A DNA stretch of 64,000 nt from Candidatus Micrarchaeota archaeon (GTDB lineage: Archaea > Micrarchaeota > Micrarchaeia > Micrarchaeales > Micrarchaeaceae): positions 37,751 to 101,750 of the forward strand of contig JAJZNR010000024.1 in the NCBI GenBank assembly GCA_021811605.1, in the 5' to 3' direction. Position 1 is the first letter of the stretch; each line of letters opens with the position of its first letter. A model generated the notes under the pieces. It ran no database searches and was not told the origin of the DNA. It saw nothing but the letters and a program-made list of their open reading frames with translations. The translations under genes and the position numbers were made by a program. Positions 11,497 to 14,338 of the stretch are shown here, piece by piece.

Positions 11497-11618
11497 TTAT
11501 TGAGATTATTTTTATTTACGCGTCTTTTAAATATCAGAAGCGGCGCTGTCATATTGCCGCAGGGAACCGGACGAAGCATTTAAATAACCTGCCAACCACA
11601 ATAAAAAAGCGACCAGAC

Positions 11619-12467
11619 ATGATGCGACCAGAGACCGTATCACCACGAAGGGTAGATTCAAGAATACCTGCATCCAGTGCCCCAACACAGCGCCTGCGCG
11701 TTGTGGTCGGGAATCCAGCACCGGGTGTCATCGCCATTCCTCCAAGCTTTGAACTTGAACGCTTTGCTTCCTCGATAGTCATGGCGAACTCTGGCCTGTG
11801 CAACAGGAGCGATTCCCTGGTCGAAGCCTTCGTAGAGTCTACAGGGCAGATAACCACAAGCGCTTCCGGAGTAGCTGCCCTCACAGAGTTCCGGAACAGG
11901 GTTTTCTCAGAAGTAAACGGTTATCCCACCCCTGCAAATTTCCTGTCTTATGCTGACACGGTCCGTATGAATCTGAAGAAGGAACTCAACAACATAAGAA
12001 TAGCCAAGATACACAGGGACGAGTCCGACCTTGCCAGGAAAGACGACTCCCAAAAGAAGATACACGGGCAGAGGGCGCGCGATAAGGAGCGCATAGAGGT
12101 GCTCAATAACCTCCTTAGCATACTTAACACCGCAGAGAGGATAATGATATGGCAGAGGAACACGGCCGCGCTTGACGATTTCATTTCCAGACTCACTCTC
12201 AGGAGCGACAGGCATGAAGAGGAGGTGGTACGCCTTGGGGAATACGTTTTGGACAACAGGGCAGCCCAGGTGCCGACCCTGCGTTATATAATCAGTGAGG
12301 CGGAACGCGATCAGGTGCTGCTTGCGGCTGTGAAAGAGAAGTACCCCGATGCACAACTTACACCTGAATGGATTTCCCCAAACGCTAAACTCGCAATGAG
12401 TCCGGTCGATATAACGAACATGACGTTACTGGCTGAGCCGTTCACAGCCCACACCGATTTCGTATGA
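11619..12467 (+). CDS. hypothetical protein (start uncertain; Met55 at 11781 possible)
   Basis: 282-aa ORF. The C-terminal two thirds look helical and charged. The N-terminal 54 aa compete with antisense ORFs, so the true start is unclear. Confidence 0.4.
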   Translation: MMRPETVSPRRVDSRIPASSAPTQRLRVVVGNPAPGVIAIPPSFELERFASSIVMANSGLCNRSDSLVEAFVESTGQITTSASGVAALTEFRNRVFSEVNGYPTPANFLSYADTVRMNLKKELNNIRIAKIHRDESDLARKDDSQKKIHGQRARDKERIEVLNNLLSILNTAERIMIWQRNTAALDDFISRLTLRSDRHEEEVVRLGEYVLDNRAAQVPTLRYIISEAERDQVLLAAVKEKYPDAQLTPEWISPNAKLAMSPVDITNMTLLAEPFTAHTDFV

Positions 12468-12508
12468 AAGCGAATCAAAGTTCCGCTTTTCCATCCGTCG
12501 GAGCAAGC

Positions 12509-12516
12509 TTTAAAAA
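12509..12516 (+). promoter_or_regulatory. TATA-box-like element of the L7Ae operon
   Basis: TTTAAAAA lies about 82 nt upstream of the L7Ae ATG. This would place a transcription start near 12540, just 5' of the K-turn element. Confidence 0.4.
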
Positions 12517-12543
12517 GGCTTGCGGCTAAACATAATCTACCGA

Positions 12544-12582
12544 TTTCTTCTGATTGGGGTAACCCAAACCGGATGAAGGAAA
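12544..12582 (+). promoter_or_regulatory. K-turn (box C'/D'-like) RNA motif in the L7Ae 5' leader
   Basis: CUGA (12550-12553) is followed by the hairpin UUGGG-GUAA-CCCAA (12554-12567). Then come the bulge ACCG (12568-12571) and GAUGA (12572-12576). This allows tandem sheared pairs A53.G72 and G52.A73, then U51.U74, then C50-G75, U49-A76, U48-A77, C47-G78, U46.G79, U45-A80 and U44-A81. Confidence 0.6.
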
Positions 12583-12597
12583 CCGACGGTGTATAAC

Positions 12598-13077
12598 ATG
12601 GCAAAATCTTACGTCAACTTTCAGGTATCGCAGGAAGTGGTAGCGAAGACAATGGAGGCTTTGCAGCTCGCAAAGCAGAACGGCACAGTGAAGAAGGGTG
12701 CTAACGAAGTAACGAAGAGCGTCGAGAGGGGACTGGCAACGTTCGTGGTCATAGCCGAGGACGTTGAGCCCGAGGAAGTGGTAGTCCACATCCCGAAGCT
12801 CTGCGACCAGAAGAAGATAGCATATTCATATCTGCCCACAAAAGCGGACGTTGGCAAGGCAATAGGCATGAATGTGCCGTGCGCCGCAGTAGCTGTAGAG
12901 AATCAGGGCGGCGCTGCAAACGCGATAAAAGATGTTCTATCCAGGGTAACCGGCAAGAGCGCATCCTCGGAGAAGAAGGCAGAGGCGAAGCCGGCAGCAG
13001 CGCCTAAAGCGGAGAAGAAGGAGGCTCCAAAGAAGGCAGCCCCGGCGCCGAAGCCTGCGGAGGCTCCAAAGCAGTAA
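12598..13077 (+). CDS. rpl7ae: 50S ribosomal protein L7Ae (eL8) with Ala/Lys/Pro-rich C-terminal tail
   Basis: 'KKGANEVTKSVERGLATFVVIAEDVEPEEVVVHIPKLCDQKKIAYSYLPTKADVGKAIG' is the L7Ae core. A 39-aa tail follows ('SASSEKKAEAKPAAAPKAEKKEAPKKAAPAPKPAEAPKQ'). An ATG lies at 12598, with GGTG 6 nt upstream. Confidence 0.92.
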   Translation: MAKSYVNFQVSQEVVAKTMEALQLAKQNGTVKKGANEVTKSVERGLATFVVIAEDVEPEEVVVHIPKLCDQKKIAYSYLPTKADVGKAIGMNVPCAAVAVENQGGAANAIKDVLSRVTGKSASSEKKAEAKPAAAPKAEKKEAPKKAAPAPKPAEAPKQ

Positions 13078-13106
13078 TCGTAATATATTAGTGATGATTG
13101 ATTCCC

Positions 13107-13349
13107 ATGGCAGACGAGCAGAAAGCTGAAGCCCCGATGTTCGCGGGATTCCTCGCGGAGATAGTCGAGATAAAGGAAGGCATCAAGACAGGCATCTACG
13201 GAGAGATATACACGGTATCGTGCAGGATTCTCGAAGGCAAGGACAAAGGACGAATAATCAGGAGGAACATGCTCGGACCGGCGAAGACCGGAGACATAAT
13301 AAGGCTTCCGGACACAAGCCGTGAGGCAAGGGAGATAAAGGTAAAGTAA
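13107..13349 (+). CDS. rps28e: 30S ribosomal protein S28e
   Basis: 'AEIVEIKEGIKTGIYGEIYTVSCRILEGKDKGRIIRRNMLGPAKTGDIIRLPDTSREAREI' matches the S28e pattern. It is part of the conserved L7Ae-S28e-L24e cluster. Confidence 0.9.
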   Translation: MADEQKAEAPMFAGFLAEIVEIKEGIKTGIYGEIYTVSCRILEGKDKGRIIRRNMLGPAKTGDIIRLPDTSREAREIKVK

Positions 13350-13372
13350 GCAAGTAAGGAAAGGTGCTTTTA

Positions 13373-13582
13373 ATGAAGTGCACAAACTGCGCGCGTGAAA
13401 TCGAGAAAGGCACCGGTATCATGTACGTCTACAGGACCGGAGATATCTCGTATTACTGCTCGAACAAGTGCATGAACAACCAGCTCTTCCTGAAGAGGCG
13501 AACCAACAGGAAGCTCGTAGTACAACCTTCCAAGTCCACCAGGGAAAAGATAAAAACGGCAGCGACCGCCGTCAAGAAGTAA
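13373..13582 (+). CDS. rpl24e: 50S ribosomal protein L24e
   Basis: 'MKCTNCAREIEKGTGIMYVYRTGDISYYCSNKC' is the L24e zinc-ribbon pattern. The ATG is at 13373, with an AAGGAAAGGTG Shine-Dalgarno-like stretch upstream. Confidence 0.9.
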   Translation: MKCTNCAREIEKGTGIMYVYRTGDISYYCSNKCMNNQLFLKRRTNRKLVVQPSKSTREKIKTAATAVKK

Positions 13583-13630
13583 TCCCCCGATTTGGAGATA
13601 AGGAAACGTTAAACCTAGAATAGTGAGTCA

Positions 13631-14338
13631 ATGACAGCCAGACCAGTCAATGTTGGAAATACTGTATACAGGCCTGTTCCGTTTCCGCGGTCCGGGCAGG
13701 GCACGCAGAGGCCCATGCCATCTCCGGAGACGGTCCCCCAGAGAGATAGCCGAGCAATGGCGAGAATAGAAGCCAACACCCTTGCAGCCCCGCAGCCAAA
13801 ACCGCATGTATCGGTAACTTATGCGGATAGCGGGAATCCGAACCAGCAGAGGTTCGCGGCTTCCCTCATGCCGCTCGCCAGCATGTATCTCAACGACAAC
13901 GATGTGTATCACTCCGGCCGTCTGCAGCCTTATCAGCAGAACACGCTCGACACCGCAGTCCTCGCCGCGTTAAGGAGTTTTCCGTTTGACATACGCTGGA
14001 ATTCCGGCGCAAACATAGTCGACACGAACGACTCCCTCAGGGTGGATGTGGGCCTGAGGAAGGACGGCGAGCATTACACCGAATCCATATCGGCTCGCAT
14101 AGTTACGGGATGGGACGAGGCTAAGGGAAAGTACTTCCTGAATGTGAAGTTCCAGGACGGCATTGGGAAGCGGACCAAACCATCAAGATGGACCGGGGCT
14201 CTCGTAAACAACATAGAGTCGACAATCTATCTCACGGAAAAAGAATTGGTGTCGCTCCTTCCAGACCCAAGCCCAAAACCACAAAAGCTTGGCAGCGCCG
14301 TCGAAAGGATTTTGAGAGGATTCGGCTTCAAGGCATAA
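13631..14338 (+). CDS. hypothetical protein
   Basis: 235-aa ORF filling the gap between L24e and ftsZ. No motif recognised. The start could be a later Met. Confidence 0.45.
   Translation: MTARPVNVGNTVYRPVPFPRSGQGTQRPMPSPETVPQRDSRAMARIEANTLAAPQPKPHVSVTYADSGNPNQQRFAASLMPLASMYLNDNDVYHSGRLQPYQQNTLDTAVLAALRSFPFDIRWNSGANIVDTNDSLRVDVGLRKDGEHYTESISARIVTGWDEAKGKYFLNVKFQDGIGKRTKPSRWTGALVNNIESTIYLTEKELVSLLPDPSPKPQKLGSAVERILRGFGFKA

Follow-up and report, generated by a model that had tools for sequence, protein, structure and literature searches.

The leader of the L7Ae gene in a genome of Candidatus Micrarchaeota probably carries an autoregulatory kink-turn, as judged from its sequence and from the leaders of related genomes. 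The element lies at positions 12568-12590 of the window, i.e. of the whole 64,000-nucleotide stretch of DNA analyzed here, which belongs to an assembly of 0.70 Mb that is 63% complete. A sequence-only reading of the window had already proposed a K-turn in the l7ae leader for autoregulation by L7Ae, drawn as a fold at 12544-12581 (register A). By comparison of leaders this interpretation is right in kind, with a conserved kink-turn signature just before the start codon, but wrong in register: the fold as drawn occurs in one genome only, has a 4-nt bulge and leaves the Shine-Dalgarno sequence outside, and the element that appears to be under selection is 12568-12590 (register B).

Register B uses the same GAUGA as register A with the register shifted by 3 nt, so that GAU forms the bulge and the second GA provides G1b and A2b, and it has the opposite polarity. 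It is located 24 bases downstream of register A, which it overlaps, and ends 7 nt before the ATG of L7Ae; its C-helix 3' strand begins 11 nt before the ATG and includes the GGU (12588-12590) of the Shine-Dalgarno GGUG. The features of the leader and of the genes that follow are collected in Table 1.

Table 1. Features of the l7ae leader and the genes downstream of it, in window coordinates.
Feature	Position	Strand	Basis or remark
TATA box TTTAAAAA	12509..12516	+	sequence; AAGC directly before the box
U-rich strand UUUCUUC + UGA (5' strand of register A: NC strand, U12551, G12552, A12553)	12544..12553	+	sequence
Upstream hairpin UUGGG-GUAA-CCCAA	12554..12567	+	-6.8 kcal/mol; C stem in register A; adjoins the C-helix 5' strand of register B
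Register B: C helix, bulged-strand half ACCG	12568..12571	+	pairs with CGGU 12587-12590
Register B: 3-nt bulge GAU (L1-L3)	12572..12574	+	U at L3 in 43/43 distinct leaders, A at L2 in 42, G at L1 in 29 and A in 14
Register B: G1b A2b	12575..12576	+	invariant in 43/43 distinct leaders; G12575.A12586, A12576.G12585
Register B: NC side (3b.3n A12577.C12584, pair G12578-C12583, GAAA cap 12579-12582)	12577..12584	+	sequence
Register B: G2n A1n	12585..12586	+	invariant in 43/43 distinct leaders
Register B: C helix, non-bulged half CGGU 12587-12590, overlapping Shine-Dalgarno GGUG 12588-12591	12587..12591	+	sequence
L7Ae gene, 159 aa (core of ~120 aa + Ala/Lys/Pro-rich tail)	12598..13077	+	Pfam PF01248, E 6.8e-24
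S28e gene	13098-13349	+	Pfam PF01200; gap of 20 nt after L7Ae
L24e gene	13364-13582	+	Pfam PF01246; gap of 14 nt after S28e

The l7ae locus and conservation of register B

Sequence comparison identifies the product of 12598-13077 as a bona fide L7Ae: it matches L7Ae chains in the PDB with E-values up to 1.5e-34, its KGANEVTKSVERG aligns with the RNA-binding KGTNETTKAVERG of the solved L7Ae chains with the NExxK stretch kept, and it is also related to Snu13 (E about 1e-19 in the PDB chain comparison). The alignment to solved structures covers a fold of ~120 aa, and after it the protein has a C-terminal tail of ~40 aa (12958-13077) rich in Ala, Lys and Pro (SSEKKAEAKPAAAPKAEKKEAPKKAAPAPKPAEAPKQ); the L7Ae products of relatives in the family are of comparable length, about 140-160 aa. 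The intergenic gaps to S28e and L24e are short and the three genes are probably co-transcribed. The ORFs that flank this ribosomal-protein cluster, at 11619-12467 (+, 282 aa) and 13631-14338 (+, 235 aa), gave no Pfam match at E <= 0.001.

A TATA-type box, (A/G)(G/C)NTTTAAATA, occurs in the L7Ae leaders of relatives 75-100 nt 5' of the ATG. From the usual archaeal spacing between TATA box and start, the L7Ae transcript of the window is predicted to begin at ~12539 +/- 3. At the predicted transcript start of relatives (~65 nt before the ATG) the sequence UACAGUC is conserved, with UACCGAU at 12538-12544 as its equivalent in the window; UACAGUC is complementary to GACGGUG (the non-bulged strand plus the Shine-Dalgarno), and may serve as an initiator element or as a closing helix at the 5' end.

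We gathered L7Ae loci from 40 related genomes and read their leaders. The closest relatives by L7Ae protein identity reach 80-84%, and the leader of the one at 84% is of the common type; a metagenome search with the L7Ae protein found no close relatives, with best identities of 51% or less. The 3' part of the leaders in relatives is highly conserved; it takes the form ACYG-RAU-GA-N-(short hairpin)-N-GA-CGGUG and stops some 7 nt short of the ATG, and in 27 automatically parsed leaders (family f1 and sister family f3) the distance from the first base of the C-helix 3' strand to the ATG is 9-11 nt.

The positions that define a kink-turn are those that change least. In 43 distinct L7Ae leaders from 12 genera there is no variation at G1b, A2b, G2n, A1n or the U of L3, and the -1b:-1n pair is G:C in 41 and G:U in the remaining 2. 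The 3b.3n pair is A.C in 24 of the 43 and A.U in 6, with other combinations in the remaining leaders. The segment between 3b and 3n is occupied by 24 different hairpins of 6-12 nt, with a closing pair that is G-C in 42 leaders and U-A in 1. A bulge between the C and NC helices is present in register B, and a simple rule finds it to be 3 nt long in 43 of 44 L7Ae leaders; at the sequence level the tandem G.A and A.G pairs lie 3' of this bulge, and the C helix is a Watson-Crick helix with covariation. The sequence rule for register B is common by itself, with 983 matches in the window (C helix of at least 4 bp, NC helix of at least 1), and therefore the case rests on conservation and not on the pattern.

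The inner four pairs of the C helix are standard in all rows of both alignments, i.e. a MAFFT alignment of 19 leaders and alignment A2 with 44 distinct rows. Two-sided compensation changes ACUG/CGGU into CACG/CGUG in two leaders (L004 and L006), and elsewhere U.G is replaced by C-G or U-A and G-C by G.U. In the 19-leader alignment 79.5% of cells are paired, compared to 28-48% when the partner strand is slid. The corresponding figure for A2, which was fitted to the covariance model and so favors the structure, is 84.3%, compared to 80.3 +/- 0.9 in shuffled alignments (0 of 500 reach the observed value) and 31-57% with the partner slid; two-sided changes are seen at seven pairs of A2. Most of the covariation amounts to few independent events among related genomes.

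The region lies less than 30 nt from the start codon and much of it is invariant, and as invariance is silent on pairing, the conservation could in principle reflect a constraint on the DNA or on translation initiation, such as a promoter-proximal element or an extended ribosome-binding site, with no RNA structure involved. The two-sided compensatory changes, seen both in the C helix and in the closing pair of the NC side, the cap that varies in length between fixed ends, and the restriction of the Shine-Dalgarno match to GGUG all argue against this explanation, which we regard as extremely improbable.

We built a covariance model (R1) from the 19-leader alignment and searched it against 151 genomes of the order. 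Exactly one strong match per genome was obtained in 40 of the 75 genomes of the family, the genome of the window included, and all 45 strong matches run up to the ATG of an L7Ae orthologue; the sister family gave no strong match in this search. The lone extra match is weak (28.5 bits, E 1.7e-4) and is located before an aIF1A-like gene (MRRGGKPHDNRRGAV...) at L115 (G053:C5:12689-12730, minus strand); its ribosome-binding region is probably similar by chance. For the genus a loose search by DNA pattern was dropped, as its matches were no more frequent than those of a reversed control, and the covariance model was used instead. RNAalifold, applied without bias to 14 whole leaders of the genus, predicts the C helix of register B and nothing else.

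The C helix with the Shine-Dalgarno is the best-supported helix of the leader, as would also be expected of a stem-loop that sequesters the Shine-Dalgarno independently of protein, or of a site for another factor, for instance S28e or L24e of the same operon, with the likeness to a kink-turn being incidental. We hold these explanations to be very unlikely. A plain hairpin does not account for two invariant GAs and a U at L3 placed at exact kink-turn spacing around a freely varying cap. The element occurs solely before the gene of a kink-turn-binding protein, and the same arrangement has been tied to L7Ae by experiment in other archaea.

Register A and the competing folds of the window leader

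All elements that the sequence-only reading had listed for its fold are found at the coordinates given, the TTTAAAAA box included. The NC stem has 7 bp with one G.U (UUUCUUC 12544-12550 and GAAGGAA 12575-12581), CUGA (12550-12553) and GAUGA (12572-12576) are available for the tandem G.A and A.G pairs, U12551 faces U12574, the GNRA-capped hairpin is in place, and GGUG follows 6 nt past the stem, ahead of the ATG at 12598. The bulge had been given as 3-4 nt (ACCG, 12568-12571): 4 nt gives the 5-bp C stem, whereas the standard 3 nt leaves a C stem of 2 bp. A motif search had been called for: an Rfam covariance search of 11500-14000 with E up to 10 gave no match, and a rule-based scan recovers register A (4-nt bulge, C stem of 5 bp, NC stem of 7 bp) and register B as well.

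With these stems no pattern of its class in the window matches better than register A. The generic pattern with C and NC stems of at least 5 bp each occurs 6 times on both strands of the window, compared to 3-11 times in block shuffles, which corresponds to one match in some 20 kb, or to ~0.3% for a given leader of 60 nt. Its presence in the leader is therefore unlikely as pure chance; it is rare per site, yet as a class it is nothing special.

Conservation or covariation of the stems in relatives, which had been proposed as a check, does not bear register A out. The kink-turn of register A is absent from the other L7Ae leaders of the family, 44 in number, those of the closest relatives and of the one with the 84% identical protein included. 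Among the leaders nearest in architecture, L004 and L006 (CUCAUU/AAUGAG) have ordinary Watson-Crick A-U, A-U and U-A pairs at the positions of its G.A, A.G and U.U pairs, and L011 has UG there. A U-rich tract is present in most leaders of the genus, and the GA at 12552-12553 is unique to the genome of the window. Most leaders of the genus have a UU/UGAAU internal loop beside a GUAU/AUAC helix, and in some (L008, L029) the inner hairpin is absent. The 3' half of register A (GAUGA, GAAGGAA) is conserved because it is part of register B, and its pairing with the U-rich strand does not rise above composition-preserving shuffles (-6.5 kcal/mol in the window compared to -5.9, p 0.36). The whole-leader MAFFT alignment leaves upstream hairpins and U tracts out of structural register.

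We calculated fold energies by the nearest-neighbor method, in which G.A pairs were given no credit. Register A, as hairpin plus U-rich stem, comes to -10.9 kcal/mol, or to -13.6 kcal/mol when a closing helix between ACCG 12539-12542 and CGGU 12587-12590 is added, and is thereby slightly favored over register B with the upstream hairpin, at -9.0 to -10.9 kcal/mol; the minimum free energy of the leader is -16.1 kcal/mol. The C helix and NC pair of register B contribute -2.2 kcal/mol alone and -9.0 kcal/mol together with the upstream hairpin. The fold of register B is therefore weak by nearest-neighbor energy, the competing fold of the 5' half is equally or more stable, and the two registers are near in energy. 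Folding of the single sequence is uninformative, with z = -0.60 against shuffles and a folding model that kink-turns lie outside of.

It is unlikely that register A is the functional L7Ae site in the genome of the window, whether alone or as a conformer that excludes register B. Under that explanation L7Ae would lock the long 5' hairpin, and the ribosome would be hindered sterically, because the Shine-Dalgarno is located 6 nt downstream of the hairpin, or would be blocked via the closing helix just described, which hinges on the predicted transcript start. The completeness of its elements and its energy are in keeping with such a role, as is the occurrence of the same topology in three leaders of the genus (see below) and the fact that published leaders show either polarity. 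What weighs against it, beyond the absence from the 44 other leaders, the replacement of its non-canonical pairs and a stem pairing no better than in shuffles, is that it requires a 4-nt bulge and does not account for the GA at 12585-12586, which never varies, or for C12587 next to it.

The two registers are mutually exclusive, because 12572-12581 is common to both. One might picture a bistable leader, in which two L7Ae-binding kink-turns share one GAUGA, the first (A) leaving the Shine-Dalgarno out and the second (B) taking it in. We consider such a switch unlikely. If the leader were bistable, L7Ae would select between conformers and not simply fold an unstructured RNA, and the genome of the window could stand midway in evolution between the two architectures of the genus, where most leaders have register B and three have a kink-loop of type A.

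We considered whether the U-rich strand upstream forms a conserved helix with the GA/NC core throughout the family, which would act as an 'anti-kink-turn', and obtained no support for it: relative to 200 shuffles the duplex energies have a mean z of -0.43, p <= 0.05 is reached by 7% of the sequences, and in a swap test the strands paired with their own partner at -0.45 and with another at -0.41 kcal/mol per nt. Pairing between the upstream strand and the kink-turn core is good in some genera (L018, L019, L103). As for the upstream hairpin, close relatives have hairpins of differing sequence in the same place (UUGG/CCAA, GUCCG/CGGAC, GGC/GCC, CGG/CCG), and it may stack on the C helix of register B.

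There is also a likeness to box C/D RNAs, in that GAUGA is similar to the box C core (RUGAUGA) and CUGA at 12550-12553 equals box D, with register A having the order D' then C'. We rejected the box C/D sRNA reading, as guide regions and a second pair of boxes are absent, Rfam gives no such match, the one box-like pair is reversed inside an mRNA leader, and the CUGA is not conserved.

Other leader architectures in the family and beyond

The R1 model gave no match in 35 of the 75 genomes of the family, and their L7Ae leaders include several variants. In seven leaders from genera g9, g22, g25, g27 and g34 (L118, L119, L121, L127, L131, L137 and L036) the layout is the same, with AA-GGUG replacing GA-CGGUG on the non-bulged strand, which at sequence level implies an A.A pair at 2b.2n. 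Such a pair at this position is known in a rare natural kink-turn, Kt-23 of Thelohania. The leader of genus g29 has helices of entirely different sequence and reads UAUCUA-AAU-GA-C-CAAAAG-U-GA-UAGGUG, with two-sided changes at the -1 pair as well as at the closing pair of the NC side. Genera g26 and g57 have short L7Ae leaders in which the kink-turn is absent.

Within the genus of the window, L016, L017 and L022 lack register B and have instead a kink-loop of type A with the opposite polarity, consisting of CAGC-U-GA, a loop of 17-19 nt and (GU-)GA-(G/U)-GCUG, at 45-10 nt before the L7Ae ATG and ending 5 nt before the Shine-Dalgarno (GGUGAU). The kink-turn architecture seems, from these sequences, to have been swapped within one genus. 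The topology drawn by the sequence-only reading does therefore occur in the genus, which leaves register A with a minor share of the probability.

In the sister family f3 (L021, L024-L027, L030-L034, L037, L038 and L040) a conserved GCACC-AAU-GA-NNN-GA-GGUGU is found 30-9 nt before the ATG. This motif has the C helix, the bulge and the two GAs of register B, yet just 3 nt between the GAs, and in several genomes it is preceded by a covarying hairpin (GCAAC/GUUGC, GCAUC/GAUGC, GGUGC/GCACC); if it is a kink-turn, a triloop would replace the NC helix. Further away, the L7Ae leader on three Woesearchaeota contigs (L151, L152 and L046) contains AUGAUGA ... UCCC-UUCG-GGGA-UGAGUGAGG, i.e. repeats similar to box C on both sides of a UUCG hairpin, and has the look of a further kink-turn arrangement of a different kind.

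Proposed feedback and comparison with known systems

According to the model that we favor, excess L7Ae would bind and stabilize register B, a stem-loop that is otherwise weak. As 12588-12590 belong to the C helix, these Shine-Dalgarno bases (GGU) would then be double-stranded and covered by protein, and initiation on the L7Ae (-S28e-L24e) message would drop, resulting in negative feedback of the kind demonstrated in Sulfolobus and Archaeoglobus. We infer the binding of L7Ae, the effect on translation, the transcript start and with it the inclusion of the leader, and any role of the upstream hairpin; the position and form of register B, its conservation, covariation and specificity of one per genome, the unbiased fold, the match to published leaders and the identity of the protein as a bona fide L7Ae all speak for autoregulation through it. 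Against it speak the NC side, which is minimal in the genome of the window, with one Watson-Crick pair and a tetraloop, the weak fold beside a competing fold of the 5' half, the few independent events behind most of the covariation, the commonness of the bare sequence rule, and the 35 family genomes in which R1 has no match.

On the evidence of sequence, register B in Micrarchaeota is a new, well-conserved example of the known class of l7ae self-regulation, with a second, lineage-specific register being possible in the leader of the window. It would extend the L7Ae feedback switch to Micrarchaeota, which are small-genome DPANN archaea, and it provides a family consensus in which the GA/GA/U core does not vary, the cap does, and the C helix contains the Shine-Dalgarno; since Rfam has no match for the leader, this consensus could seed a new family. 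A caution for the reading of motifs follows as well, in that one GAUGA fits two kink-turn registers and comparative data alone show which of them is selected. For biology at large this is housekeeping control of an expected kind, by a mechanism that is not new.

In S. acidocaldarius the 5' UTR of the l7ae message contains a kink-turn to which L7Ae itself binds, and mutations of the G.A pairs abolish the binding (Daume et al. 2017, PMC5539422); a mutated kink-turn leads to higher reporter expression, and the leaders of several other archaea respond to L7Ae (PMC5539422). In each of six l7ae leader kink-turns that have been published, the bulge is GAU, with G:A and A:G after it; their terminal loop is on either helix, and the kink-turn includes or adjoins the Shine-Dalgarno (Huang, Ashraf and Lilley 2019, PMC6298567). 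In the absence of C at 3b, of G at 3n and of C:G at -1b:-1n no folding is expected without protein, and in A. fulgidus the binding of L7Ae folds the stem-loop and occludes the ribosome-binding site (PMC6298567).

Register B agrees with the published l7ae leaders in every sequence-level criterion (PMC6298567). It is situated in the l7ae 5' UTR, with its place within the transcript deduced from the TATA box at 12509, it holds the GGU of the Shine-Dalgarno in its C helix, and it falls under the rule for no folding without protein (3b.3n A.C, -1b:-1n G:C). Register A shares with these leaders the G.A criterion alone; its bulge is not of 3 nt, and neither its G.A core nor its stems are conserved in relatives.

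As in the leaders of Sulfolobus and Archaeoglobus, register B is located between a TATA box and the l7ae start, it takes the Shine-Dalgarno into its C helix, and its stems are short and weak. It differs from the published leaders in its lineage, Micrarchaeota (DPANN), and in being known from sequence; a literature search found no paper on an l7ae leader element in DPANN or Micrarchaeota. Unlike the published leaders, that of the window has an NC helix with a single Watson-Crick pair, capped by a GNRA tetraloop, a C helix that adjoins a stable hairpin, and a second, overlapping kink-turn register. A very short NC stem with a small loop is also found in the kink-turn of the U4 snRNA 5' stem-loop, which is bound by 15.5K/Snu13 of the L7Ae family. 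The U4 kink-turn is similar to register B in its short, capped NC side, and it differs in being part of a spliceosomal RNA and not of a regulatory switch.
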